Assembly: GCA_051362555.1 (NCBI GenBank)
Contig: CM120647.1
Coordinates: 2,418,001-2,482,000 of the forward strand
DNA: 64,000 nucleotides
Origin: Lingula anatina
Lineage: Eukaryota; Animalia; Brachiopoda
Direction: 5' to 3'
The notes under the pieces are model-generated. The model was given only the letters and a program-made list of their open reading frames with translations, searched no databases and was not told where the DNA came from. Made by a program: the position numbers and the translations under genes. Every line of letters begins with the position of its first letter. Position 1 is the first letter of the stretch. This document shows positions 5,688-44,933 of the stretch, piece by piece.

Positions 5688-7052
5688 TAATAATAATAAT
5701 GACACTAGGTATGCTTCAAATAAACTTTTGATCTAATTTTTTATGAAATGTAACTGTTGCATGATGATGACTAAAAAAGTTTTTAAATTCTTCTTAAAAC
5801 AGTAATATGAGTCATCCAGAGACACATTATATCTTGTGATAAAATTAGACCATAAAATCGGTGCACAAATCTCGAAACTTCTGTGTCCATATGTTTTAAG
5901 AGTCTTTTTGGTGTCTTTTCGCTTAAGTTGAAGTTGTCCACTAGATCGAAGTGATCTGGTAGGAGTTAAAAGTTCTGTGGTAGAATTTAAGTAAAATGGA
6001 CAGTTGCCCTTTAAAATCTTAAAAGTCAAAAGTTATATTTTAAAAACTATTCGTTGAGACACGGGTAGCCAGTGGAGGTTTCGCAGAATTGGTGTGATGT
6101 GGTCGGACTTCTGAGCTTTACAGAGGAGACGAGCAGCAGAGTTCTGAATTGATTGTAGCTTTTCCATTTGATAGTAAGGTATTCCAAACAATAGGCTATT
6201 GCGATAATCCAGTCTAGAGGTTACAAATGCAGGGATGAGTAATTAAGTTTGCTTGGTGTTAATAAGGTGAAAGATCTTGGATATCCGTTGGAGACTAAAA
6301 TATGCTGTTTTACATACTTTGTTAATGTGTGATGTCATTTCACATTTGTTATTAAAAATAACACCCAAGTTCCTTACTTCTGTTGGTTTTATAAAGAATC
6401 CCCAACTCTAATACTATCAAGTGCAGTATTGTCTTTGGAAAACTTAGAGTTGAAATGGACTAATTCAGTTTTTTCATCATTAAAAACTAAGTAGTTGGAC
6501 TTGAGCCAAGATCTAAGTTCATTCACACAAGCCTCAATAGTTGCTTTTTCATCACAAGGATTTTCACATATAACATATATCTGGGAATCATCTGCATACA
6601 ACATCAAATTGAAACCAAACTGAGCAACTATATCCTCAGTTGGTGAGGTGTAGAGTGTAAACAGTATAGGACCAAGCACGGAGCCTTGTGGCACACCATA
6701 AAGTAATTTGCTTAATTTTGAAATAGAAGAGCCTATGCGTACATGTTGCTCGCGTCCAGTTAGATAAGACCGAAACCAGGAGAGAACTGTCCCAGTTATC
6801 CCAAACCGATGTGCAAGTCGTTGGAGCAATATGTCGTGATCGAGAGTATCGAAAGCTGCTGATAGATCAAGAAGAATCAATATCACATGTTTCTGATCAT
6901 TCAGGGCTTGGAGAATGTCATTCTGCACCTTAAGAAGGGCTGTTTCTGTACTGTGGTTTGGTCTATATGCAGACTGGCATTTTGCATATAAGGAAAAGCT
7001 GCTCAAATAGTCATTTAATTGGCTTTCAACAATATGTTCCAGGAGTTTGGAA
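5688..7052 (-). mobile_element. 5'-truncated, frameshifted non-LTR retrotransposon (L2/CR1-group LINE), RT and ORF2 C-terminus
   Basis: SNLSFLSKLLE, QSAYRPNHSTETALL, LLDLSAAFDT, GVPQGSVLGP, YADD, then LHWLPV and RSLRS...YGHRSF..APILW across frameshifts; ends in an (ATT)n tail at ~5688-5701. Confidence 0.9.
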
Positions 7053-7369
7053 AGAAATGACAGATTTGATTTCGAACTTAATTGACCTGCATTTTAGTAA
7101 GATTGAGTACTCCTGTACACAGATGTGTTTGTACATACTGCCGTCACCTGCATCTGTCATCGCCGTCGTCACCGTCGCCGTGCACTTTCAGCATAAACAC
7201 GATAAGTGGAAGACAATTTTACTTTTTGGCTCAATATTTACAGAGCTGATGAATATTCATAAAACGCAGTTATGCTTTTTTTTCACTATTCAGCATATAT
7301 TCAACACTGTAAACACATTTCAAGGCAAACCGATATGCCTGTTGTCATGAAACTCACATTTCATTTGAC

Positions 7370-26212: not shown

Positions 26213-28684
26213 TGCTTGCCTTCCGCTTGCCAAATGTGCAGAAGTTCCGCAGCAAAAAGCTGTCCGCAGAAAAAAGTCAAAAACTCGAAAAGTCGCAAAC
26301 TCTAAAAGTCGCAAACTCTAAAACTCGAAAACTCTAAAAGTCGCAAACTCTAAAAGTCGAAATATCCAATAGGGGCCACCATACTTTACAGATGTTAAAA
26401 ACAATCTTGTGATATTTCCTCTCAAATGTTTGAGTCTGTTCATGTATTCCATTAAGACAGTACATAAACATAATATATCTGGTGCATATGCTGTCACTGT
26501 CATTTCACCAATGGTCTTGACTGCTTCAGTAAATCACCAAATCTAAATGTGACTTTAGACTTATTAATTGTGATGTTATATGAATGTCAATAAGGTGCAA
26601 CAATTGGGTTCTTTGACCTGTCAATAATATAGTCAATGTCACTGCTTTCTTGCTCAATTGTAAAAGATTAAGTTGTTTCACAGGTGAAAGTTTTTTAAGG
26701 TAATTCAAAAGCAAACTTGTGCCCCATATATCACATTGTTCCTTGGTAATGCAGGTCTAGAAGTAAAAACTCCTCTCATCAATCTAACCACATGAGGATG
26801 ACCACCTGCTGGACACTTATCCACCATAATAAAAGTTGCTTACCGTATATCTTGCTGTATTTAGAGCAGAATATCCAAGCTTCTCATCAAAGCAATATGG
26901 GCTAAAAATTTTACAACATCAGTTACATTTGGTGACAATGTATTAATGTTCCTCTCATTACAATATTGAATCCATCTTGAAATGTAAGATTCGTATTGCT
27001 TGACAGTTGTACCTCTCCATGAGGACATAACCAATTTGACAGCTATTGGCGAAAATGCCATATCTTCGAAACTTTCCCTGACAATACACAAGCCATTAGC
27101 TGTAACTTTGGAAGATGATTGTCCATGTTTTTGTGTGGGTGCAACAGCAATTCTTGATTCCTGGGAAGTAAAAAAAGACAAGATATTAACATATATGGCT
27201 CAATTTTGAAAACCATACTTGAGTTGTCCAATAAGGCACTACCACTATAATACTATATCCACTTGATCAAACTCAGTCTTGCTTAACATCTTTCCTATTA
27301 AAGAAAAAGGTGGAAATGCATAAGCATTCATCTGTGACCAGTCAATAGACAAGGCATCCATTTTCATAGCAAATGGGTCAGGTTCCATGAGACGTATTGA
27401 GGTAGTTGATTATTCAGCCTTGAAGCAAACAGATCCGTTTCTGGTAGATAAAACTGCTTAGTTATATCTTTAAATACTGTTGGGTGCAACTTCCATTCAA
27501 GATTATCATGATCAAGTCTACTTTCTTTATCAGTTTCTAGTTCTACATTATTTTCTGATTCAATATATGCAACTGATAGCCATATATTTTTTCCCTTGCA
27601 CCATAACCAAAATTTTCTGGCCAAGTCATTTAGTGAGGGTATTTTCCCTCCCATTCGAGCATTATATGACAAAGCAGTTGTATTATCTATACACATTTTA
27701 ATGTGAATATTTGTAAAAAGGATGGGGGGGGGGGGGGAATGCAGGGGTATTACATCAGGAGGGAACTGGTCAGCAGTTGAAAGAACTTTTCACATTAATC
27801 ATCTTGAATTACATGTATTAGCTGTATGGTTTGCTCTAAACTGCTTTGCACAAGATGAAACATCTCAGCGATTTTGATCACTTAAAAATTTTGATTTTGA
27901 TCACTTAAAAAGGATAGTAAATTGGCTATTTTGCATTAAGTAAAAAAGTGTTGAAAATGGAAATAAACTTGTTTCAGTACAGTTATCTCTTGTTTATTAC
28001 ATCTAGTAGATTGGGTTATTTGTTTTATTTTATATATATAATTTTTTTCCTTGCATGTATGAACATTTTTCTATTTCTGGCATTTACAAAGTGTGAACTT
28101 GAACTTTCATGGGTCTGAAGCCTTATATATATGTCAGTTACAATACTTACATCCATATCAAGTGTTTTGCATAATTAAAATTTGGTGCTTACTTTACTTT
28201 GCATAATGTATTATTGCAACAGAATTGCCAGTTGCCTATTTGGTGCATCATGTTTTTCTGCTTTCTTTCTGTACATTTGACAGTTTATAGTAGGTCAGAT
28301 TTATAGCTGATCCAAATACAGGAACAACAGAGAGGAGTTCAGGTCCATTGCAAAATGGGAAAACTCAACTACAATCTTTATTGAGTATAAAAATAAAATC
28401 AAATAATACTCCTGCATGGCAGCTATACACATGAGGTGAAACACACCTTCAAGACCTCCTCATATATATCTATGAATGATTGTACTCTGTGCCTTTTACT
28501 TGAAGTAGTGCCCAAGAACAATTGCTGACACCTATGCCAACTGAACTCACTGTTGAGTTGCTAAGAATGTTTAAAAATTGTATAGTGAAGGCAAAATAAT
28601 TCACTGTTTTATTAAAAACATTGTCAGACTAGAATGATTACTTGAAAATATTTTTGTATAAAGTATAAAATTTGATAAATTTTG

Positions 28685-28857: not shown

Positions 28858-29724
28858 CTGTAACAAGCAATGCCAACATATCTTTTCTTCATCTGTGATG
28901 TCTAATTTTTCTCTAGGTTTTCCCAGAACAAATCAATGTTCCATGGAGATTTATTTTAATGTTATGTCACACACTGTGCCTTAAATTGTAACATCTAAAA
29001 TTATCATTAAAAATTATAAGCATTAGGGGAAGAAGATCAATCATAATTTGGAATTAAGTGAAAATGCAACAATGATTTCTACACCATTATGTAGCTTAAG
29101 GGTTACTGTACACAGATATGTAATGGAAGTTTTTTAACCTTATATGCTTTAGTAAAATGAGATCAAATATCAAATGAGATCAAATTTGAGGCATTTCAGG
29201 AAAATTAATTACCAAAATGCATATATTGATATAACTTAAACCTAGGGTATGTTTAGTAGATTTTCCTCTGCATTTTAATGATTTAATAAGGTTTTGGAAG
29301 TTGATTTGATAGTGGGTGAGATTTTTGACTAATACGAGTACTGAAGGGGGTTAAGTTCAAACCACGAATACAAAAAGGGAAAAGGAATTATTCATAGTAG
29401 GCAGTCTAAGTTAGATATTACAATGAAATAGACACACACACACACACACACGCACATACACACACACACACACAGTGGCGGGTGTTGGGGGGGATCCTGA
29501 CCCCCCCTTTTAATATCTGAAAACAAGTCACACCAATGGTCCCTTCAGAATTTTGACTAGCTGAATCATAGCTATAAACCGTGCCAAATGGCACCATTCG
29601 CCCTCTTAAATACCCAAAATTTTCTGGGCCCTTTAGCAGGCGCTGAACCCCATGCCAGGAGGCAGAAGAGTTGGCTTCACATCCGTCGACTCCCCCTTCA
29701 AATAATCCTGGATCTGCCTATATA

Positions 29725-30277
29725 CGAGGGCCAGTCAATAAATAACCAGCCTAACCTATTTTGGGTTGAGATCTACTTCTTCTTTTTCAATATAATTTCC
29801 CTCCTGGGCAATGCACTTGGACCAACGGTGTTCAAGTGCAATCAGCCTAGAAGTGAAGAAGTCAGGGTCCTTTCCACTGAACCACTCCTCAACTGTGGCC
29901 ACGACTTGGCTGAAAAGACCTGGCTTCATCTTCTAAAGACGTTCTACCGCATTTAAACTCCCCAACCCAGAATTGCACATAAGATGGTGCAGAAGACCCA
30001 TACACATCAACTAACTCGGCATGTGTGTCCTTACCAGTTTTACGAGTACCTTTCAAATGCAAGTACTGAATTACAGAACGGTACTCCATTTTTGATGAAA
30101 AGTTTGCTTTTACATCACTAGCCATGTTTGACATTCAATATCTGACAAACAAATGACCGTATTCATGTGTAGTTTTGTACCCAGGTACAATACATGTATT
30201 GAAACAATGCGTGAAAATCGTGGATGTCTCGGTTGATTGGAGATGTGTTAGGCTGGTTATATATTGACTCGCCCTCG
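29725..30277 (-). mobile_element. Internally deleted mariner element
   Basis: TA-flanked TIRs CGAGGG..AGTCAATA.ATAACCAGCCTAAC; HTH region MEYRSVIQYLHLKG...EFKCGRTSLEDEARS joined to a C-terminal remnant (EHRWSKCIA..GNYIEK). Confidence 0.85.
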
Positions 30278-31157
30278 TATATATATATTTTAAGTTCCTT
30301 TGGCACATTAAGAAAATAACAGTTTTTGTGTAAAATATGACCCATTATTCAGTCACACAAGGTGAAATAAAGGTCAGAAAAGATCATTAAAATGCAAGGT
30401 CACGTGATCAAATCTCTTTGGTTCTGCCTAGCCTCCAGCATCCCCAGGGCCCGCAGTCGTTCTAGTGTCAGACGTAGCATCACTGAACTTTTTTGTCATG
30501 TGTCATATTGGATTTGGTGACTACCTTATATAGGCTTAATTAGTCACCATATATTGAACCTGATAAATTCACACCTATCACGAGACAGGAAAAACACATG
30601 ATTTTGTAACAGCTGGTTATAAAATCAATGAAGCGGAAATTTTAAACATCCAAGTGGTCAGCCCACTCTCTTATGGCCAAACAAGTACATTTGTACTCAT
30701 TTACATGGTTGGAATCGTTTCTCGGTAAAGAAGTACAAGAAAGTTTTCTGATGCGTTTTCATTGACTGTCAGTATACATTTGGAAATTAAAAGAAAGTAA
30801 CACTCAGAATGACTTTAGATGGGACGTCATAAAAAAATCAGCGCCACACAGAAGAAATCAGCACCTATGCAACCTTTGCCTGGATGAAAAACTGTTAATA
30901 ATGATAACGCCAGATACTCTAAATAAAAGAACTGAAATAATTACCATGTGTTGGCACAAGGTGACGTAACTGACAAGGCGTGCAACGTCAGTGTCGTCAC
31001 ACCATGCAGATAATTATGTATATACATGTATATATAAATGGCTAAAACACCATTTTCAAATAAACACCTCCTGATAATCAGGCAAACTCGGAGTCGGGGT
31101 TGATACATGTCTCGTTTTTTTATAATTATTTATTAATTTTATATATATATATGTGTA

Positions 31158-31189
<32 letters not shown>

Positions 31190-31703
31190 TCTGCCTGTAG
31201 CTGAAGGGTTATGCTACAAAATGCTATTTAATATTGAGTTTTATATAAGTAATTGATGGTCAAATATCAATTGAAGTTAATTTTGAAGCATTTTCTGGAA
31301 AATAAACCAATATTTATTAAGATAATTTTCACATAGAATATGTCTTTAAGGCATGTTGGTTATATTTCAATGATTTAATAGGGTTTGGGGAATTTATTTC
31401 ACAGTAGGTGTGAGCAATGATTATTATAAGTACTGCAGGCAGTGTCTCAGTTCAATTGCCCAAAATGGGGTAAGAGAAAAGACATTATCAATAGCACATG
31501 TAGTAATTCTAAGTAAGATATAACTTTGATTTATATATCATTGTGTACCTGAAAGGGTTGCTCTAAACAACTAATGAATGTCATGTTAATTGAATTGTGG
31601 CTAAACCAGGTAGCTTCACATAATGTCTTTGTTTATAGTTAGTAATTCCTTAGAATATGTTGTATAAAGTTTAAGGAGGTAAGGTGAGCTTGTTTCTTAA
31701 TTT

Positions 31704-32193
31704 TATCAGGCTTAGAAGTTTAGCAAATACTGTTGATGTAGTTCACTTGTCAGAGGTTGTCAGAAGTCTGGGGATCTCGCAGCTCAAAGTAGACTCTAAC
31801 ACACAAATGTTCTCTATATTCAGTTTATTCAATATATTCTTCTACTTCTCAGCTCTACTCCTCTTAATACGACCTGCTCTCTTGCTCTACCTCTGTCAAC
31901 TCTACTTCTCTAGTCAAACCATCTCTTTACATAGGTTCTACACTATAATTTATGGGAGGAAATGGGGGACAATAAATTGAATCTGGGGCTACTAGGTGAC
32001 TACAATAAGACTACAAGAAAGGAAGTGTCTGATGTTCTGACTACAAGAAAGGAAGTGGCTATTGTTCTAAGCTATCTAATTGAACAGGTGAACAGGTCGT
32101 AAAGTCTGAGAGGAAGTGCCATTGCATAAACAAAGTAAAGAAATCTTGCAACTTTATGTAACTAAAGACAAATAAATAAAAGTAGTTATGATA
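31704..32193 (-). repeat. 3' LTR (490 bp)
   Basis: No differences from 41157-41646 found by eye; TATCA...TGATA termini; minus-strand AATAAA at 31824-31829. Confidence 0.95.
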
Positions 32194-32226
32194 TGTCTCC
32201 CGTGGTCGACAAAAATTGTGCCTCAA

Positions 32227-32742
32227 ATTTTTGTTTTGGTTTGAACTTATACAGATATGTGTACAAGAAATTCATTTAAATCAAAAGAAACATTATATAA
32301 TATCCCTAAATATTTATGAAGCAAATGCGTACATGTCCACGAACACAAATATATGGTTTGAACTTATACAAATATATTTATATACCCACAAGTGCTTTAT
32401 CTAAATCTAAATAAATGTACCATTAATATGTATGCAGACACTACATACACATCTACAAAAGAAATCTTGCAACTTTATGTAACTAAAGACAAATAAATAT
32501 TTTTGTTTTGGTTTGAACTTATACAGATATGTGTACAAGAAATTCATTTAAATCAAAAGAAACATTATATAATATCCCTAAATATTTATGAAGCAAATGC
32601 GTACATGTCCACGAACACAAATATATGGTTTGAACTTATACAAATATATTTATATACCCACAAGTGCTTTATCTAAATCTAAATAAATGTACCATTAATA
32701 TGTATGCAGACACTACATACACATCTACAAAAGAAATCTTGC
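32227..32742. repeat. Tandem duplication (272-bp period) in the env-LTR spacer, with an embedded LTR fragment
   Basis: 32227-32470 equals 32499-32742; the junction 32458-32499 equals LTR sequence at ~32138-32179. Confidence 0.9.
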
Positions 32743-33324
32743 TAACTTACAGGTTATAATTATGGTCACATTGGACATGTTGGTTACTTAAAATCGCAAG
32801 CTAGTAAATATACAATTAAAACTATGACTATATAAAAGGCTATTGATAAATGTTACGGTACTAATAAATTAACAAAATACATTATAACATGATACCGAAC
32901 TCATGTTTAATTCAGTGTTCACCCATATTACACATATATTTAGTTACATATACTTTAATTAGGTTTAATATTTAATTAGGTCATTATTTTATTCTAATGC
33001 CCTTCATGCTTTGATGTTGTACCACATCTTGTCAAATATATATGATTATAACTCTATACATAATACCTTATATCCCAACACCATACATATTTAATAATAT
33101 CATATATTGTCAAACATATATTTATTATTCTAATTATTAAACCTTATGTTTCAATACCTATGACAACTCTTTATTTTTTCAATTATGTTGTAAACAGTGC
33201 AATATGATTATTTGTCTCATTATTGGTAAATAATTCTTACATTCATATCTACTTTCACACGCAAGTGAACAAGTCTTTCTTATTGTTTTGCATATGTATT
33301 CTTTTTCTTTGCGCAATATGGCTA

Positions 33325-35675
33325 TTATAGGTAGACTAATCTTTTGTGGTGTATCACCACTAAATATACATCAAACGGTACTTTGGTTAATCTTTTTAGC
33401 TTTAGATAGTTCCACAGTGGTAAGTAAACAGTGACAGGCAATTGGATGTCAGAATTTGGTTTTGCATGGCAGGTTTGTACTAGGACATCATCTCCCCATT
33501 GAATGATTATCTTGGGACGGAGTCCTTTGACTAATGTTATATCTTTAACTAATGGAGCTCCCCTAACAGTAATTTCATTCGGACAAGATTGGATTTTTGT
33601 CAGTGGAATTATTTCATTCATTTGATGGTTTGATACTTCGATTGCCAAACAGTTTTTCAACTTTCTATTTCTGCATCGTCTCCATAGAATTATGGACAGC
33701 ACTAGCATCAAAGTGGCCATAAAATACACAGTGGGTGTAATCTCAGCAGTCAGGATTTCATACATGTCGAATTTTGTAGTTTCAGGTTGAGTTGTGGTGG
33801 TGAGCTTGTAGACAAAGATAGGGGCAGGCGTTGCCCTTGCTTGCCCTATTGTTAGCATAGTAGCTCCCAAGATTTTTAGTTTGTATGCCAAAGAAAAGGT
33901 GAAAAGTATGCCTAAACAAGCTAAACCTAAGGCTACATATGCAACTATTTCTTTCAGAGCCATATCAGGTTTGGGTAATTGTAAGTCTCCAGATAATAGT
34001 GGTTCGGTGAGCGATTGAAAGATTGTTTCTCCCTTTTTGGCAGCCTTCATTGCCTCTTTGAGATCCATTTGTATTTCCGAATCCTGATTAACAAACTTTG
34101 AAAAATTATGTGCAAATAATTTTATTGTGGGGATGTCCACAATTGGGGGAGTAGAGAATGATGAATGGCTTAAAAGGTGAGAAAAATTTTGGCTATCGAA
34201 AAAATGTTGAATTACTGCTAAGTTTATGGGGTGTAACACTTCTACGTCACTGGATGTTTCGCAAATCTGTTGGGGTGGCAGAAAAAAGGTTGAATGCTTA
34301 ATAGCGCATGAGCAAGGCACAGTCATAATGCAAAAATCGCACCCTGTAACTGTGGTGTTTGTTGCACATTCAAAAGTGAGATTGTAAATTTTACTGATAA
34401 TGATGTGATCCTTTCCCAGACGCTTAACTGATGGGGATGCACTATTGGGAAGGAATTTAAAATGACATATTTCCTTAACTTTGGGTTTATTTTCTTCTAG
34501 AATGGCCTGAATACAATCATAATTAACCGCGGGTTTTAATTTGGTAGCTTTACATAATCTTATTTTGTTTCCCGTACACTCATCAAGAAAATCTCTGCTA
34601 AAAGTTATCGGTGCCTTGGCCGAGGAAGACTTCCCAAAATATTCTGGAATATTGGTTAGAAGCGAGGAATGGTTACTTGTTGCATTGAACGGTATTTTAA
34701 AGACTTCGGTTTCAAACACTTGGAAACTGTTATGAGGTGCAAAAATGGGAATTTTGAGTGTAACGATAATGGAATCATTCATTTTGTTAGTAGCAAATTT
34801 TGCATATTGGTAATAGTATTGCATGTCCTGTTGAATAGAATAATGCTTTCCATGTTGTTGCAGGGCTGTCTGAATATGTTTTAGTGTGCTAGCCAAAACT
34901 TGGGGAGGGAATAGTACTGGTGAAAGCTTGCCATGTGTTAAGTCGTTTAGTCCTATAACTGTGCTACTTATCTCTTGGCTAAGTTTAGCAGTAACTGTAC
35001 TTAGGTGCATCAGTTTAGTGATCAACTTAAAATTGAACTCCATTTCATTTTCCACTACTTTCAGGTCTCCACCTATCATAACACCTAAATGGTGGTTAGC
35101 CGCTATTTCCTTAACTATATTTGTTAGTCTCAGATTTTGGTGATGGAATATCGAACCAAACTGGCGTGAAAATTTAGAGAAGGTTGTTAGGGCTTTTTGT
35201 TGTCTTGCTTGCAAGATATTCATATGATCGATAACCTTGTTGACTTGGCTTTCGGTTGCAACTCCGAACAAAGATTTCGCTATGTTACCCACAAATGGAA
35301 GAACTGAACGCTTTTCTCTACTCAATTGGCGACTAGGGGTCTTGAAAATCATGTCAACTTTGTGGTGGAAGGCTCTCAACTCTGCAGCAGTCTGACTGTA
35401 GAGCCTTTTTCCTTCTGAAATGGCCCTTTCCACTAATACACATGTTTTGTCGTCCACACGCCCTTCACAGTCTAGGTCATACGCTGACTCTGACGGAATG
35501 TCAGGTATGTGGATCGTCATTGAATGCAGCCAATAGTCGCTTACAATCCTAACAGTTCCCTTATCATGCAACATCAGTCCGTAATTCATAAGGGCTCTAT
35601 CTGCTAGGGTAACAGGCACAGTAGCTAACATCATCAGGATAATGAGTATGAGGTTGATGTCTCTTGTTTGGGTCA
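33325..35675 (-). CDS. env: Envelope/fusion glycoprotein (baculovirus-F/errantivirus-like class I fusion protein) with C-terminal extension
   Basis: Hydrophobic signal (LILIILMMLATVPVTLA), furin site REKR then fusion-peptide-like SVLPFVGNIAKSLFGVATE, heptad region, Cys-rich ectodomain, N-glycosylation sequons, TM IVAYVALGLACLGILFTFSLA, second TM VYFMATLMLVLSIILW. The annotated GTG start overlaps a splice acceptor. Confidence 0.88.
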
Positions 35676-35708
35676 CTGAAGGGGAAGAAAGAAAGGGGAG
35701 AGATTAGC
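35676..35708 (-). promoter_or_regulatory. env splice acceptor (branch point, polypyrimidine tract, CAG)
   Basis: Minus strand reads gCTAATctctcccctttctttcttccccttCAG|TGACCCAA. Confidence 0.8.
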
Positions 35709-36002
35709 AATTGCTTGCCCATCTTCTGCCATAGACCAGCTATAAAGAAGTTAGGCCAGAAAAAGAAGTTAGGGTAGGCGCAACCTCAAACTTGATAAAT
35801 AAACACTCACAAGTGATTACCTATGAACAATGGACTACCTTATATTAGTTACAGAACAACACCTTAGCCATTTACTGACAACAACTGAGCTAACACAACT
35901 CGTTCTCAAAACTGCCGTTAGACCAAAATTTCCTATATAACAGAGAAAAAGGTAAAATAAAAGCATGAGTCACTCATGTCCTTGCACCGGCACAATTCAC
36001 AG

Positions 36003-39000
36003 CTAAACCTTTTGTTTGCGAGTTACTAATTTCCTGCGTCTTGCCTTTCCTGACATAGTTTTCTTTGCATGAAATTCAGAGATCAATATTTGTGGAACCT
36101 TCTCTGCCAAAACCCAATCTGATCCCTTTTTATGCTTCCATTTCACTCTGTACCACAGCACACTATTATTACCTCTAGCACCTTTCAGGATGCATTGAGC
36201 TTCATCACCTAGGGGTACCCCATTTTGATTAGGACTATCAGGAATATCACTGGATAGCATCTCCTTATCTACCCTTTCTGGATTTCTATCGTCCTCTGCC
36301 TGCTCGACTGGATAATCAGGTTCAGTTGCTGGTGGGGTTTCATTGTCAAATGGGGTGCGAATTATTGGGTCTGAGTAAGGTTTAAGACGATTGGCATTTA
36401 CTGGGTGTTTGAGCAGTTTATTGGTTGAACATTCCCTTAATTTGTAGGTGGCTTTCCCAATGATCTTGACTATGTAATACGGTCCTTTGAATTTTGGGGT
36501 AATTTTTGATGTTAGTCCCACTGGAGTACTTTCATTTCTTACCATGACCCTATCTGTTACGGCGTATGTAGGTTCTTTGGCCTTTTTGTTGTGTTGTCTA
36601 ATGTTCTGGGACTGTGAATTCAATTTAATTTGTGCAGCAGCTTTCCTACCTTTATTCAGAGAGTCTAGTTTTTGTGTAATGTAGTCTTCCATATTTTTGG
36701 GCAGGTCATTTTGGGGTAACAACTCGTAGTCTAAAGGGGTTGTCATTTCTTTGCCAAATAACAGAAAATATGGAGAATATCCTGTACCTTCAGCAGGTGA
36801 GCTCCTGTAGGCCATTAATATAGATTCTACATGGTTTGCCCAATCTGATTGGTCCTTTTTGCACAATGCCCGTAGGGACTGCCAAATAAATCCGTTGAAT
36901 CTTTCACAGACTGCATTGGTCTGAGGGTGGTAACTGGCCGTGTAATGTTTTTCTACATCAAAAATGTCACAAATGGCCTGAACTAATTTTGATCTAAAAT
37001 TTTGGCCTCTGTCCGTAATAATTTCGAAAGGAGCACCATATCTTGTGAAAATTTGAGAGTACAAAATTTCCGCTATTTCTTTAGCTTCTTGTGTTTTGAG
37101 TGGAAATGCTTCTGGCCATCGCGAAAATGAATCTACTGCCAAAAGAATGTATTTATGGCCAGATTTTGAAGGGGTTATTGGGCCTAAAATGTCAAGATGC
37201 CAGGTGCTGAAGACATCTTTGATGGGTAGGGGTTGCAAGGGTGCTGCTTGAATTCGATAACTTCTCTTTACTCTTTGGCAAACTTCACATGATTTTACAT
37301 ACCGCTTTACATCTCTAGGCATTTTGGGCCAGTAGTATTTTAGTCGGAGTTTCTCTAAACATTTGCGATAGCCTGGATGACAAGCTCCTGCTCTAACGTC
37401 ATGATATGCTCTCAAAACTCTCCGCCTATGCTGTTTGGGTACCACTAATTGTTCTAATACTGTGTCATCACCAGCCTTATGCCTTCTAGTACAGCGATGT
37501 TTCCTGTATAATACTTGATCTCTAAGGAAGAATATTTCTTGAATGCTTTTTCCTTTCTCCTCCAGACTACTAGGGGACTCTCCTAGTTTCTCAATCATGG
37601 GGGCTAAGTCTTTCGAGGACCGTTGCATCTGTACAAGGTTGTTTAAATTCACTTCCTTGGGATTATGTTCACTAATACTAGCTATTACCGTTGCAGTCTT
37701 GGGTTTCCTATAAACAAACCTTGTAGCTTCCCATTCACTCTTCTGAAAACCAACCTTACATGCATGAACTACACTGACTTCTTCCCGCTTTTGATCCTTT
37801 TCACCATCGTTAACCTCATCCTGTCTAGACAAGCAATCCACTGGATTCAGGCTTCCCTTTTTGTAAACCACCGTGTACTGTAAACCTTGAGTTTCCAAAG
37901 ACCATCTATTCAGTTTCTGATTGGACGACTGCTTGGACTCTAGCCATTTTAAGGGCATGTGATCTGTATATATAGTGAAATGACGGTTTTGTAAAAACTG
38001 GCGATATTCCCTTATGCCTTCAATTAAAGCTAAGCATTCTTTTTCCGTAACCCCATAGTTTCTTTCAGCATTTCTTAAAGTCCTAGAACCATAAGCAATA
38101 GCATGCTCTCGTCCGTCTTCTCCTACCTGACTTAACATGTAGCCTATAGCAAAATCTGAGGCGTCAGTTGTCAAATTAAACTCTTTATTCATATCAGGAA
38201 AAGCAAGTATGGGAGCGTTTGCTAGAGCTGACTTCAAATCATTAAATGCTTGATCACACTCATCAGTCCATTGGAAGTCCGTAGTTTTCTTAGTTAGGGA
38301 ACACAGAGGGGCAGCTATCTTGGCGTAACCTGTGACATATCGCCTGTAGTAATTACACATACCCAAAAAGCTACGCACCTGAGTACGAGTTTTAGGGATG
38401 GCAATCTTCTTAACGGCCTCTACCTTAGATGCATCAACCGAAATCCCGTCCTTGGAAATGAAATGACCTAGGAAAGCTACCCTTTTGGTGGCTAGTTTAC
38501 ACTTTGAGGTTTTGACAGAAAGATTGGCGTCTTGCAGCCTCTGAAATACTAACTCCAGGTGCTCTAGATGTTCTTCAAAGGTTTTGGAAAAGATCAGGAT
38601 ATCATCAATATAGCATGCTACCATGCGCCAGTTTAGATCTTTCAGAATACGAGCCATAGTGGACTGATAAAAACTCGCAGCGTTGCGAAGGCCAAAAGCT
38701 AAGCGTTTGAACTGAAAGTGCCCATGGTGAGTTACAAATGCAGATTTATGCCTGGTTTCCTCAGCTAGAGGCAGTTGCCAATAACCACTGAAGAGATCCA
38801 AAGAAGAAAAGAATTTAGCTTGAGATTCTGAAAGAATGTCCAGTACATCAGTAAGACGTGGTAAAGGAAAGTGAATAGGGGACGTGACCTTGTTGAGTCG
38901 CCTGTAATCAATAGCGAATCTCATGGAGCCATCTTTTTTTTTCACTAACACGACCGGACTAGCCCACTCACTGGTAGATTCCTCTATTATGCCATTTTTT

Positions 39001-40076
39001 AACATTTCGTCAGTCTGTCTCTCTACTTCGGCCTTCTGTTCAGGGGTTTGCCTATAGTGTCTTTGCCTCTGGGGAGGGGCATTTCCTGTGTCAATGACAT
39101 GACCTTTAACTCTACCTTCACCTACCTCAGACAAATTAGAGGCAAAAACTTCTCTGTACTTCCCTATAAGTATAAGGAGCTGTTCCTTTTGTGACTGAGT
39201 TAAATCTGCCTCATCTAGGCAAATACCAGTTTCTTGACCATGTTTTAAATACTGGGCTTTAGTCTCTACATCACTAACCTGCACTTGTTCATGAGAAGGG
39301 GTTGCTGACATAACGCTAGGTGGCCGTGGGTGAGTAAGAGATACAAGATTGCTTTCTTCTATTGGGTAAGCCTTAGCCATTAATTTATCATAGGGAATGA
39401 AAATGGTTTGGTTAGTGGGATTGTAGATGCGGCATGCACTCGTACCTTTGTCTATTTTCACCACACATCTGGCAACCATGTAACTATTTTCGATGGGTTC
39501 TAAAAGCAGATTTTCAGCGGTTGAGTTGTTAACTCCTGAAATTTTCACTGGTATTAATGCTTCTCTACCTGGGTCAATTCTACATTGTTGTACAGCACGC
39601 ACCAGGCCTAAATGATCAGGTTTGTTTGTCTTTGGGGCGTCATGGCTTTGGAAAGTAATAGTTTCATTTTTCACATCAAACTTAGCACCATTATTCCTAA
39701 GAAAATCTAACCCCAAAATAAGATTTCTCGGTAGCTGTTGAAATACATAAAAATTTTGGGAAAAGGGCTTTTTACCAATTTGAAAGTCTACTGTAATACA
39801 TCCCTTCACTTTATGCAATTCTCCCCCTACACCAGCTACTGCAACCAAATCAGCATTTTTTATTTTGAAATTTTGATTTTTCAACTGCCATAAGAGATTT
39901 TCTGAAATACATGAAACTGTAGCCCCAGTGTCTATCATTGCTTTTACCATTTTGTCACCTATCTCGACATCTATCAAATTGTGGTCAACGCGATCACCCA
40001 CAAAAATTACTCCTAAATTGCCAATTTTCTGTAAACTTTTGCTACCTATATTCTTAGTCATATTGCGCTCGCACCC
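36003..40076 (-). CDS. pol: Pol polyprotein: protease, RT, RNase H, integrase, chromodomain-like tail (in frame with gag; first ATG at 40061)
   Basis: IDTGA protease; SEWASPVVLVKKKDG, DYRRLN and YIDD in RT; TDAS and EKECLA in RNase H; H..H/CEVC, LDILGP, ITDRG and CERFN in integrase; KFKGPY; WYRVKWK...SDWV. Confidence 0.97.
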   Translation of the reverse strand, partial: GCERNMTKNIGSKSLQKIGNLGVIFVGDRVDHNLIDVEIGDKMVKAMIDTGATVSCISENLLWQLKNQNFKIKNADLVAVAGVGGELHKVKGCITVDFQIGKKPFSQNFYVFQQLPRNLILGLDFLRNNGAKFDVKNETITFQSHDAPKTNKPDHLGLVRAVQQCRIDPGREALIPVKISGVNNSTAENLLLEPIENSYMVARCVVKIDKGTSACRIYNPTNQTIFIPYDKLMAKAYPIEESNLVSLTHPRPPSVMSATPSHEQVQVSDVETKAQYLKHGQETGICLDEADLTQSQKEQLLILIGKYREVFASNLSEVGEGRVKGHVIDTGNAPPQRQRHYRQTPEQKAEVERQTDEMLKNGIIEESTSEWASPVVLVKKKDGSMRFAIDYRRLNKVTSPIHFPLPRLTDVLDILSESQAKFFSSLDLFSGYWQLPLAEETRHKSAFVTHHGHFQFKRLAFGLRNAASFYQSTMARILKDLNWRMVACYIDDILIFSKTFEEHLEHLELVFQRLQDANLSVKTSKCKLATKRVAFLGHFISKDGISVDASKVEAVKKIAIPKTRTQVRSFLGMCNYYRRYVTGYAKIAAPLCSLTKKTTDFQWTDECDQAFNDLKSALANAPILAFPDMNKEFNLTTDASDFAIGYMLSQVGEDGREHAIAYGSRTLRNAERNYGVTEKECLALIEGIREYRQFLQNRHFTIYTDHMPLKWLESKQSSNQKLNRWSLETQGLQYTVVYKKGSLNPVDCLSRQDEVNDGEKDQKREEVSVVHACKVGFQKSEWEATRFVYRKPKTATVIASISEHNPKEVNLNNLVQMQRSSKDLAPMIEKLGESPSSLEEKGKSIQEIFFLRDQVLYRKHRCTRRHKAGDDTVLEQLVVPKQHRRRVLRAYHDVRAGACHPGYRKCLEKLRLKYYWPKMPRDVKRYVKSCEVCQRVKRSYRIQAAPLQPLPIKDVFSTWHLDILGPITPSKSGHKYILLAVDSFSRWPEAFPLKTQEAKEIAEILYSQIFTRYGAPFEIITDRGQNFRSKLVQAICDIFDVEKHYTASYHPQTNAVCERFNGFIWQSLRALCKKDQSDWANHVESILMAYRSSPAEGTGYSPYFLLFGKEMTTPLDYELLPQNDLPKNMEDYITQKLDSLNKGRKAAAQIKLNSQSQNIRQHNKKAKEPTYAVTDRVMVRNESTPVGLTSKITPKFKGPYYIVKIIGKATYKLRECSTNKLLKHPVNANRLKPYSDPIIRTPFDNETPPATEPDYPVEQAEDDRNPERVDKEMLSSDIPDSPNQNGVPLGDEAQCILKGARGNNSVLWYRVKWKHKKGSDWVLAEKVPQILISEFHAKKTMSGKARRRKLVTRKQKV

Positions 40077-41129
40077 CTATTGTTTTATAGTCCTGCACAC
40101 AGTTGCTAGGTGACCTAAGCGGCCGCATTTATAACAAGTTTTATCTTTTGCAAAACAAGAAGAAGGAGAATGACTCGTCCACTTACCACACGTATTGCAC
40201 TTGCGCTTCTCACTTTCTCTCTCTCTGCTCCTTTCTCTACTTCTTTGCCTAAATTGACTACGGTTGTCCTCCCTTGCCTGAAAAGAAACTTTTCTATCAT
40301 TAGTATTGGTTGTTACAGCTTGAACACTTGCACACTTAGTGACCAGCTGGCTCAACTGGCTCATTATATCCTTGTGCATTCCCGCAAACTGTGACATGAC
40401 ACTGGCCATGTTCACAACTTCAGTCTGGGCCACTGTTGGTGCTGGCTCCTGACTTGGGCTGCATGCAGAGGCAGCGTCTGCCAGAGTGGCAGCCTCCTGC
40501 AAGTCTCTCAAGTTTTGGGGGTTTTTCATGATTATGGCTGTCCTTATAGAAGGATCAAGTCCATTCACAACAGCTGCAACTATGTGTTGCTCCGGCAATC
40601 CGACTTCTCTTCCCATTTTTGTCATTTTTGCTAGGTAGTCTCTGATTTTTGTATTTCCTTGCTGACATGAAAACAATTTTGCTGTCCTTGTTCTTATGGT
40701 GGCTGGGCTAGGTCCATACCTTGTCAAAAATTGCCTTTTTAAGGCTTCAAAGTCAGCTTTGGTATCACCATCCAAAGTTGAATACCAGGTCTTGGCATTA
40801 TCCATTAATAAATAAGCAAAATGAGACAGTTTCATTTGCAGGTTATACTGCATTACCTGGCAGTACTCTTCATATCTGCCCATCCATTCCTCTGCATTTT
40901 CACTCTCATCTCCTCGGAAAGGAAATGGAGAGAGGTGTTGTGGGAGGGATAAAATAACCTGATGTCCTGGTTGCCTTGGTCCCTCTGCTGCTTGTGATGG
41001 TGGTGGTGGTGGTGGAGGAGGTGGTGTTGGTGGTGCTCTGCTACTTACATTTACTGCAGATGGCCCTGGCCTTTCTGCCTCACGGGTTGGCTCCTCTTCC
41101 TGGGCTCTGGGTGATCTTCTGGTGGCCAT
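40077..41129 (-). CDS. gag: Gag (capsid plus two zinc knuckles)
   Basis: 350 aa; Pro-rich N-terminus; PFRGDESENAEEW..RYE and AKTWY..L...F..LK..FL..Y capsid pattern; CNTCGKWTSHSPSSC and CYKCGRLGHLATVC. Confidence 0.93.
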   Translation of the reverse strand: MATRRSPRAQEEEPTREAERPGPSAVNVSSRAPPTPPPPPPPPPSQAAEGPRQPGHQVILSLPQHLSPFPFRGDESENAEEWMGRYEEYCQVMQYNLQMKLSHFAYLLMDNAKTWYSTLDGDTKADFEALKRQFLTRYGPSPATIRTRTAKLFSCQQGNTKIRDYLAKMTKMGREVGLPEQHIVAAVVNGLDPSIRTAIIMKNPQNLRDLQEAATLADAASACSPSQEPAPTVAQTEVVNMASVMSQFAGMHKDIMSQLSQLVTKCASVQAVTTNTNDRKVSFQAREDNRSQFRQRSRERSRERESEKRKCNTCGKWTSHSPSSCFAKDKTCYKCGRLGHLATVCRTIKQ

Positions 41130-41137
41130 ATTTTTGC

Positions 41138-41155
41138 CCTTTTGGTTCTCCGCCA
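41138..41155 (-). promoter_or_regulatory. Primer binding site
   Basis: TGGCGGAGAACC... begins 1 nt after the 5' LTR; TGG is complementary to tRNA CCA. Cognate tRNA not identified. Confidence 0.7.
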
Positions 41156-41156
41156 G

Positions 41157-41646
41157 TATCAGGCTTAGAAGTTTAGCAAATACTGTTGATGTAGTTCACT
41201 TGTCAGAGGTTGTCAGAAGTCTGGGGATCTCGCAGCTCAAAGTAGACTCTAACACACAAATGTTCTCTATATTCAGTTTATTCAATATATTCTTCTACTT
41301 CTCAGCTCTACTCCTCTTAATACGACCTGCTCTCTTGCTCTACCTCTGTCAACTCTACTTCTCTAGTCAAACCATCTCTTTACATAGGTTCTACACTATA
41401 ATTTATGGGAGGAAATGGGGGACAATAAATTGAATCTGGGGCTACTAGGTGACTACAATAAGACTACAAGAAAGGAAGTGTCTGATGTTCTGACTACAAG
41501 AAAGGAAGTGGCTATTGTTCTAAGCTATCTAATTGAACAGGTGAACAGGTCGTAAAGTCTGAGAGGAAGTGCCATTGCATAAACAAAGTAAAGAAATCTT
41601 GCAACTTTATGTAACTAAAGACAAATAAATAAAAGTAGTTATGATA
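41157..41646 (-). repeat. 5' LTR (490 bp)
   Basis: Matches 31704-32193; followed by the PBS and the gag ATG 28 nt downstream. Confidence 0.95.
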
Positions 41647-43412
41647 ATTTGATTAAGAAGTTACAATGTAAGTTCAGGAATCCTTTGCCATGGTTTGAGA
41701 TTAAAGAGTGGGAGTTCCCACAGATTGTCAGAATGTACCTGAGCATGCAATGAGTGGACATTAAATGATTGAAACTGGTTATTGTTGTCAGCCTTGGATC
41801 TCCTAATAGCGATTTACACTATTAAATATTTTGACCACGAATCTGGAAAGTAGTTTAACATGTTATCCAACCTAAAAGTTAACAACGGTGTCCATGTTGA
41901 GAGCCTGTTTGTAATTTTTGTTCAGTGCTAACTTCGGGCTGGTTTGTATATACAGGGTAAGACCATGCAGCCTTAACAAGATGTGGCCAGACTAGGTAAT
42001 CCTGTGTAACATTGTACATTGTAAAGTGACAACTCTACAATTGATGAGTTCACCAAGACTTAGAAGAGGAAAATCTCCGAGACAATTCGCTTTAAATAAA
42101 AATGAGCCAGGAGCAATTCCAGTCCCTAATTGAAAATGTGCAAGTCTTAAACAATCAGAGTGACCAAGATCACTGCGATCAACAAAGATGACATTGACCC
42201 CAGAGGACTCTTGATAGAACAGGAAAATGAATTCAAAAGGGAGTTTTAACTATCTCTGAATGTAGATTCATAGTATGAAGTTTTAAGTGGCCATCTATAC
42301 TCCATCAAGAGACCAACCAGGACCAGCGCCATCTTTTCACATACAGTATATAATTACCATCACCATACCAAAGGAAGTGTGATTGAGGGCAACCAACTAG
42401 TAAAACTCTCGACAGAGTATGGCAGAGTTACAGTGGCAGGTTGAGGGGGGTTCAATTTCTGAAAAAAAATCACACCATGTGATCCCCTCTTGAAATGAAA
42501 ATTTTCACTATCTGAATCACAGTTCTAAACTGTCCAGAATGGCAGCGCTTGCCCTCTAAAATACCAACATTTTTCAGAGTCCTTCAGCGGCCCTGAATCC
42601 CAGGCAAAGGGGGGAAGGTTGGCTTTGCATCCTTGAACCCCCCCCTTTAAATAATCCTGGATCCACCCCTGGAATTATATACACACAATGGACAATAGAA
42701 CTGTCACCCCCTGAATCAGAGTAATCAAAGTCAGCAGATTTTGAGTAGTTATAATGCCTGGTCTACTTATAATGTGACTAATGAGTATAAAACCGCTGTG
42801 CCATGAAATTGTCTTTTTTTTTTTTTTTTGAAATATGATGTTAATAAAATGATGCCAGAAGAATATCATTCCACAGTCATTTATCTCCCCCAAAGGATTG
42901 GTTCAGAAGGGGTGACACTTCTATTGTCCATTGTGTGTATGGTCCCAAATGCGTGGTGATATCCAAAATCAATTAGATGATGAGCAATGTGCAAGGTGTG
43001 TATCCCGCGACAGCAACATGCAGGATATGGTGAAATGCCCATGTCAGTAGTCATTACTTAATCAAATGATTGGAGTGGATCTCATTGGCCCGTTTGTGGA
43101 ATCTTCAAAAGAAATATATTGCCTCAATTTAATTGATTACCTGTCCAGATGGGTGGAAAGTTACCCCATTCCCAACAAGACCTCTGTAGTGAACCATTAA
43201 TAGTGCTAATATATAAGATTTGCATATATGAGATTTTCAAATTTAATTTAAAATGTATCTACAATTAAGTTTTAATTTATTCGGATGTATATAGGCATGG
43301 CATGGAAGTTAATTTGACATGCTAATTAAGATCAAGCATTAAAGAGGCAACAGAGACACGGATAGATATACAGAGAGAGAGAGAGAGAGTAGGCTGGACA
43401 GACAGACTTTTA

Positions 43413-44933
43413 CACTAGTCGACATTTGCTATGGATCATATTTAATGGACTTTTTTTTACCTTTGTATATTTTTTGGGTCTCCAAAATGAAGTTGCACAA
43501 CCATATGTATTAGTCATTGATTTTGTTGTTGTTTTGGTTTAATGCACACGAGTAAAAACTTCAAAGCTGGTTCCTCAGCTCACATTCAAGAAGCTGTGTT
43601 CCCAGTACACAAACATGCTTGGTCAGTGGAGTGTTGTTGATGGCACAACCAATTCTCCTGATGTGCTTTTGATTGCCAAATTTCAAAATGCCTCCAACAA
43701 GACTAAGAAGTCATTTACCACCAGCAGAACTGAATTGGGCTATTAGGTTACTCCAGGATGGCCAGACACAGTGCCATGTAGCCACTCTCCTTGGTATGTC
43801 CCAAAGTGTGATATAAGGTACTGGAGGCATGGGCAGGCAGACCACTGTGGTGGTCGCCAGATACAGACAACACCTCAGCAAGACTGCTACTTGACCTTCC
43901 AAGGACGCCTGGATTGCTTGTTTCCAGCCAATTTGCTCCAGAATGAGTTTTAGAATGCAACAGGGGTACATGTGTCAACTCAGCTGGTCCGGAGATGTCT
44001 CCATGAAGCACAGTTGAGGGCCAGAAGTCCATCTGTTTGCACTGCTTTGACACGGCAACACAGACAAGTGTGTCTACAGTTTGCAAGGCATCACAGGTGG
44101 TGGATGATCCAGCAGTGGTCATCTGTGCTGTTCACAAATGAGTCAATGTTTTGCTTACACTTTCTGGATCGACGCAGGAGGGAGTGTGGAGACGGCCCAG
44201 GGAGCACAACACTCAGCCAAACATCTTCCAACATGATTGGTTTGGAGGACCATCAGTTCTCGTATGGGGTGGAATTTCAATCCATGGGTGTACTGACCTT
44301 CATGGGATCCAGAATGGGACTCTCACTGGTCTCAGGTATCGAGATGAGTTCATTGCCCCTATAGCCCATCCCTAGGTGCTGTTGGTGACAACTTCATCTA
44401 ATGGACAAAAATGCTCTTCCCTATCGAGCCAACGTTGGAGCAGGAAGGAAATACTGGTCACCACACCTCAGTTTGATTGAGCATGTTTGGGATTTGCTCC
44501 AGAACCGCAGTCGAGCTCGGCAGAATGCTCCCATACAATTCGGCAACTGGAGGATGCTTTGGTGGAAGAGTGGGACCAGATCACTGAACAGCAGTTATTC
44601 TGTTTTATTCAGAGCATGCACAGAAGTTGTGTCACGGTTTTTCAGCTAAATGGTGGTCATACACACTACTAGGGAAATTTTGCATCCAATTTCTTGCTGA
44701 CATGAGACATTTTACTGATGTTTGGCATAAAGTGTTTTTTAATGTGAATGTTTGTTGTGCTCTCCTGAAGTTTTTTTTGGTGGCGATTATGTTCTTTTGC
44801 AATTTGATCTTTTTTCTCACTTTACACTGAAATTGCTGAAATTTGGTCTCGTTTAATATTGTGAAGCAAACCAGTCATGATTGTCAAAATTTCATTAGCA
44901 AAAGACATGATCCCTAGCAAATGTTGACTAGTG
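43413..44933 (+). mobile_element. Tc1-family DNA transposon with pseudogenised transposase (~43688-44672)
   Basis: TA-flanked TIRs CACTAGTC(G/A)ACATTTGCTA(T/G)GGATCAT; WSSVLFTNES, VLVWGGIS, SPHLSLIEHVWD, GGHTHY* across frameshifts. Confidence 0.92.

Follow-up and report, generated by a model that had tools for sequence, protein, structure and literature searches.

The window analysed here, a 64,000-nucleotide stretch of DNA, carries on its minus strand (41646 to 31704) what we read as an intact Ty3/gypsy element with an env gene, likely inserted recently into a probable Lingula genome. The env product is predicted to begin with an F fusion protein of class I, behind which come another membrane anchor and a domain predicted to fold like the matrix (M) proteins of Mononegavirales, such as those of Borna, measles and Ebola viruses, the last likely serving as a matrix layer. 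We give this reading as a whole a probability of roughly 0.6. It joins observed features (LTRs, target site duplication (TSD), three open frames, the order of the domains, a fusion peptide with its furin site, two transmembrane segments (TMs) and conservation of the tail across the family) to two predicted ones, namely the folds of F and of the M-like domain. We did not find the matrix-like Env tail, which is shared across the family, in print, and the element otherwise belongs to a known class. In the open literature we found neither a retroelement Env nor an aliusvirus glycoprotein described as having a matrix-like domain, although subscription papers, Repbase Reports, figures and supplements could hold one.

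Structure, age and copies of the insertion

The element is bounded by a 490-nt 5' LTR (41157..41646, minus strand) and a 3' LTR (31704..32193, minus strand), between which the sequence-only reading had seen no differences. Alignment bore this out, with 490 of 490 positions identical and no extension possible at either side. On the element's strand the LTRs begin with TATCA and end with TGATA, the non-TG/CA ends to which that reading had also drawn attention, and not with the TG...CA that is typical of, but not obligatory for, Ty3/gypsy elements and that the majority of LTR elements carry (PMC12440569). Each LTR has a single AATAAA, at LTR position 365, and no canonical TATA box. The TSD is intact as claimed, with ATTT at 31700..31703 and 41647..41650, an agreement that random 4-mers would show in ~0.5-0.9% of cases. 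A PBS-like 12-mer that starts with TGG (41144..41155, minus strand) lies 1 nt past the 5' LTR and has one mismatch to a tRNA end of the type 'others' and one to the PBS of Platynereis errantivirus_7 (eLife table, PMC13524379), and a weak, short, non-canonical polypurine-tract-like stretch (32194..32205, minus strand) stands just before the 3' LTR. Gag, pol and env are uninterrupted across ~7.5 kb, as had been reported. Since the LTRs show 0 differences in 490 nt, the insertion had been called very young, a description that holds within limits: the 95% upper bound on divergence is 0.61%, which corresponds to an age below ~0.3 to 3 Myr at assumed rates of 1e-8 to 1e-9. This Ty3/gypsy element with env is intact and was likely inserted recently.

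Env shares 98% of its residues with P0001, an NCBI model from Lingula anatina; the two differ at 13 of 783 residues in Env and at 1 of 314 in Gag. In nine DNA runs from one organism and three studies, 77-85% of the words are present. Therefore, the host is probably Lingula, a brachiopod, and not the mollusc that had been supposed. For a population comparison we used contigs, which drop rare variants, from four of the nine DNA runs (X1, X2, X3 and X9); these differ from the window copy at 16 of 3,354 nt, 1 of ~1,570 nt, 34 of 4,068 nt and 21 of 3,970 nt, respectively. The 3' UTR of the window copy contains an extra 272 nt (32227..32498, minus strand), in which a duplicated 251-nt block is joined at microhomology through 42 nt that have the same sequence as the beginning of the LTR. 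This duplication, which looks like a template switch by reverse transcriptase, is missing from the X1, X2 and X3 contigs and is private to this copy. At 41297, both window LTRs have A where the contigs of all four DNA runs have C. The shared A and the LTR-bearing duplication fit a recent round of reverse transcription with template switching, with assembly polishing a possible source of the A and of the identical LTRs. In X1 and X3 the LTR contigs are about twice as deep as the internal ones, which hints weakly at few copies, and none of the contigs listed bridges an LTR and its flank.

RNA coverage, which the sequence-only reading had proposed as a check, was surveyed in four of nine listed RNA runs, with 6-25% of each read. 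At an identity of at least 99%, trace reads were found in X11 (14 of 12.4 M records), X14 (11 of 9.5 M) and X12 (15 of 12.4 M), and none in X17 (0 of 11.1 M). X17 instead yielded 132 reads of a diverged form, 90-95% identical and spread across env and pol, which may derive from another population or a sister family. In X11 and X12 there are transcripts, from other loci, of a short repeat that lies in the flank (41760-41819).

The trace level of RNA and the hint of few copies would suit a copy that is not currently active and belongs to an old, low-copy, silenced family, its LTRs made identical by gene conversion or assembly polishing. The restriction of the 272-nt duplication to this copy points the same way, as does the published screen, which lists Lingula as 'yes - No intact copies' and thus has no intact copy in LinAna2.0 (PMC13524379). 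We nevertheless hold such inactivity to be quite improbable, given the exact TSD together with three open frames, the A that both LTRs share against the C of all four runs, and the LTR sequence joined at microhomology within the duplication.

Several other features lie in the window: a mariner-like element (29719-30283) that has inverted ends of 37 nt and retains part of a Mos1 HTH, a very high-copy inverted-repeat element with 32-nt arms and a contig depth in the tens of thousands (42640-42940), a Tc3-like transposase remnant (43954-44364), an RT fragment, probably from a LINE (6389-7093), and a fragment (27364-27789) that may resemble DIRS RNase H. A single 311-codon ORF (51248-52183, minus strand) with SEA, EGF and a TM-like segment may be a host membrane-protein exon or a retrocopy.

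Gag, Pol and the UAG junction

The gag frame (40077..41129, minus strand; 350 aa from the ATG at 41129) encodes, in order, a Pro/Glu-rich low-complexity N-terminus, a Retrotrans_gag/Ty3 capsid and a zinc knuckle. Its N-terminus has no Gly2, and no matrix-like domain was detected there. The frame ends in TAG at 40079-40077 and pol continues in frame, in agreement with the earlier description of gag and pol as separated by a UAG. The UAG is followed by GGG UGC (40071..40079, minus strand), a type III-like readthrough context, since UAG-GGG fits the type III class (PMC3159437). The same stop is kept in the X1 and X2 contigs, which rules out a private nonsense mutation.

We consider it probable that Pol is made by readthrough of this UAG. 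An in-frame AUG lies five codons past the UAG and no stable 3' structure is predicted after it (z +1.99), and both observations would accommodate a Pol produced by re-initiation at that AUG or from a spliced RNA. Likewise, in 61 of 63 aligned Pol relatives the called protein begins at most ~110 residues from the protease motif, a count that is silent on mechanism. However, gag and pol fit together exactly in frame, Pol normally needs Gag for packaging, and MuLV (a gammaretrovirus) and tombusvirids likewise have an in-frame UAG followed by G/GGR, although no pseudoknot or stem is predicted here. These points make re-initiation or splicing the rather unlikely route to Pol. A metagenome scan returned 30 distant RT loci, none with env, and provided no test of UAG conservation. 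A profile search added nothing to 5 proteins that had already been matched. In two distant RT elements, L026:1-2995 and L012, a TAG lies in frame 72 codons ahead of the protease motif, with 416 open codons upstream of it in L026 and no env on either of these short contigs.

Pol (1357 aa; 36003..40076, minus strand) has protease (DTG), RT (YIDD), RNase H and integrase, arranged in Ty3/gypsy order. Its top PDB match is Ty3 Gag-Pol (E 6e-121), and the others are at E 4e-48 or weaker except for the Ty3-like 4ol8. The best 120 of 1,577 Pol relatives are mostly 38-51% identical, and the named ones include Mytilus, Pinctada and Haliotis. Domain order and closest similarity, together with the LTRs, a TSD within the 4-6 bp range and a tRNA PBS (allowing the one mismatch), place the element in Ty3/gypsy (Metaviridae). 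BEL/Pao and Copia are ruled out by the domain order and the Ty3 match, and Troyka by its CG..CG ends and 3-bp TSD.

The integrase ends in a chromodomain-like tail (36069..36206, minus strand), as had been proposed. Pfam alone returns Chromo_shadow at only E 0.087, but PF00385 is present in 35 of 63 aligned Pol relatives and an HMM built from these 35 matches the tail at E 4e-9. The central W is kept; because aromatics are missing at two other cage-like columns, methyl-lysine reading by this tail is doubtful.

Env and its matrix-like tail

The env ORF (33325..35703, minus strand) spans 792 codons from stop to stop. It has 783, the length given in the sequence-only reading, if it starts at a predicted polypyrimidine-AG splice acceptor (35675), and 769 if it starts at the first ATG. 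Since this ATG sits within the hydrophobic core of the signal peptide and the acceptor is in phase with donors in gag, env is predicted from the sequence to be expressed from a spliced RNA. The candidate in-frame (phase 1) donors are at 41083, 40213 and 40186, whereas the donor at 41048 would not join env in frame. The RNA survey described above showed no splice joint. Thus, of the spliced multi-TM Env that had been claimed, splicing stands as a prediction and the membrane segments are borne out, with at least two TMs in 103 of 109 aligned Env C-termini.

A furin site (REKR) and fusion peptide (35245..35319, minus strand) mark a class I F-type ectodomain, and a furin-like site is present in 81 of 93 aligned Env rows. 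Env is matched by 1,849 clusters at 50% identity, among which the best 150 were listed. Neither Pfam, for Env or its tail, nor phmmer against the PDB, for Env alone, returned a match. An alignment of 112 Env rows, picked mostly by length, matches PDB 9w4d, a 'fusion protein', at E 5e-22, and an AlphaFold model of Env (pLDDT 82) matches the F proteins of RSV, hMPV, NDV and hPIV3, so that a gB-type Env is rejected. The ectodomain is therefore predicted to be a class I F fusion protein, in keeping with the earlier identification of an env-bearing Ty3/gypsy element with an F-type Env. With uninterrupted gag, pol and env, the element is an errantivirus in the operational sense of Chary & Hayashi, and an F-type one by its furin site and fusion peptide. 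Errantiviruses in this sense commonly, though not necessarily, have several near-identical copies in the genome, whereas the contig depth described above hints at few.

TM1 (33892..33948, minus strand), the anchor of F, is followed by a conserved segment of basic, eight hydrophobic and small residues (33832..33882, minus strand) that resembles an internal signal peptide and is probably cleaved, then by a short Pro/Thr/Ser-rich linker, TM2 (33685..33741, minus strand) and a 110-aa C-terminal domain (33328..33657, minus strand). In a structure search with this domain, ranks 1-9 of 48,161 chains are all matrix proteins, from four virus families, and the matches span almost the whole domain at 6-16% identity. 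An independent viral library (BFVD) returns the same group; the ESM Atlas gave no usable match, which is evidence of neither novelty nor absence. The domain is conserved across more than 100 diverse relatives and lies immediately behind a TM and a basic stop-transfer patch, the position expected of a matrix. The tail is thus predicted to have the Mononegavirales M beta-sandwich fold. It is M-like and not a member, since it continues the env frame behind a TM and is not a separate soluble gene product. Its likely role is that of a matrix layer carried by Env itself. Lingula has a second env family (P0002, LOC106163521), 50% identical, whose gene model stops after TM2 without the tail domain, through model error or true loss.

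In the mechanism that we propose, full-length RNA would yield Gag, low-level readthrough of the UAG would yield Gag-Pol, and RNA spliced from a gag donor to 35675 would yield the Env precursor. In the ER, F would be held by TM1, and cleavage at the signal-like segment would free a small type I membrane protein with a Pro/Thr-rich luminal stub, TM2 and a cytosolic M-like domain. This domain may coat the inner leaflet, arrange F trimers and capture Gag capsids, and furin-activated F could then take particles from cell to cell, as in Drosophila errantiviruses. We infer the cleavage, topology and oligomerisation of the tail as well as its contact with Gag. Since the Gag capsids have no myristoylation signal or matrix domain, the tail would provide the missing membrane-lining layer; the RSV M lattice positions F (PMC11247094), and gypsy Gag is likewise non-myristoylated (PMC3383448).

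The element could also be an ordinary ancient errantivirus whose small beta-rich tail resembles M by convergence or very remote ancestry and serves trafficking, F regulation or host antagonism. We regard this as unlikely, because the top ranks of the structure search are occupied by matrix proteins over nearly the full domain, the viral library agrees, and the domain adjoins the membrane where a matrix would sit. A further alternative accepts a true M homolog and leaves Env uncut, either as one multi-pass protein or as a Gag-Env fusion like that of P0001, with the M-like domain tethered to F. AlphaFold merges TM1 and the signal-like segment into one helix, P0001 connects gag codon 314 with env by way of the perfect donor at 40186, and the RNA reads surveyed contain no splice joint that could decide. 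On the other hand, the tripartite signal-like pattern is conserved, and TM1 and TM2 alone would put the domain in the lumen; therefore, a cytosolic domain needs either a third span or cleavage. An uncut Env seems less probable still than an unrelated tail, and cleavage followed by a cytosolic M-like domain is the reading that we prefer.

Related systems and implications

Chary & Hayashi (eLife 2026; PMC13524379) describe 1,512 such elements with F-type Env, including a chromodomain clade of ancient errantiviruses whose hosts are Cnidaria, Mollusca and Annelida. Our element shares with these the gag-pol-env order, Ty3/gypsy Pol, PBS, >99% identical LTRs, an F ectodomain with furin site and fusion peptide, and a chromodomain after integrase (the HMM match above), but its host phylum is probably Brachiopoda. 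Its placement in the clade is suggested by named Pol relatives only, and an Env relative clusters with Mytilus proteins. The combination of features that had been thought rare is not so, since F-type env with a chromodomain is published for lophotrochozoan and cnidarian gypsy elements (PMC13524379) and a multi-TM Env is the family norm; the features stressed by the sequence-only reading are mostly family traits. The published analysis concerns ectodomains only, and the main text of PMC13524379 does not mention matrix, splicing, readthrough, cytoplasmic or target site.

Drosophila errantiviruses (gypsy, ZAM and idefix; PMC12992720, PMC3383448) have an F-type Env and a non-myristoylated Gag, as the element appears to have from its sequence, and express Env from spliced RNA, with the idefix donor inside gag. 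Their Env is described as having one TM and a cytoplasmic tail, in contrast to the second anchor and M-like domain here (PMC12992720, PMC3383448). Unlike theirs, the present Gag has a zinc knuckle, Pol has a chromodomain, and gag and pol are joined by UAG. In Drosophila errantiviruses this junction is a frameshift. The predicted fold of the tail is that of Borna M (3f1j), paramyxovirus and pneumovirus M and filovirus VP40; the tail is a single domain, like Borna M, and has an F-type fusogen as its partner, like the M of paramyxo- and pneumoviruses. Those M proteins are separate soluble gene products, whereas the tail makes up the end of env, behind a TM, in a reverse-transcribing element, at the low identities given above.

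The best viral-library matches of the tail are glycoproteins of Aliusviridae (Jingchuvirales), such as those of Taiyuan leafhopper virus and Hubei coleoptera virus 3. These are negative-strand RNA viruses with glycoproteins of >1,000 aa, a class I fusogen (Viro3D) and no named M gene, and their glycoproteins likely have the same F-plus-M layout. The BFVD matches (e.g. A0A455LK50 and A0A1L3KMZ8) are aliusvirus or chu-like glycoproteins of 1,050-1,235 aa, which may hide a matrix function seemingly missing from those genomes.

We propose tentatively, at slightly less than even odds, that a large family of invertebrate retroelements carries F and a membrane-tethered matrix in one env polyprotein, a layout shared with Aliusviridae, that this F-M cassette was exchanged or co-inherited with Monjiviricetes, and that the budding matrix is borne by Env. 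If so, the M fold would extend beyond Mononegavirales, and budding would be solved by an Env-borne and not a Gag-borne matrix. Two questions are touched: by what means Ty3/gypsy elements with env bud when they lack a myristoylated matrix domain, and whether, as is debated, their F originated by baculovirus capture or has pre-Cambrian ancestry. A matrix-fold Env tail would offer a testable answer to the former and a second, independent marker for the latter. With this element, Brachiopoda joins the phyla that have an intact copy, and its matrix-like Env tail links the envelopes of retroelements and negative-strand viruses, suggesting where the missing matrix gene of some Jingchuvirales may be located.
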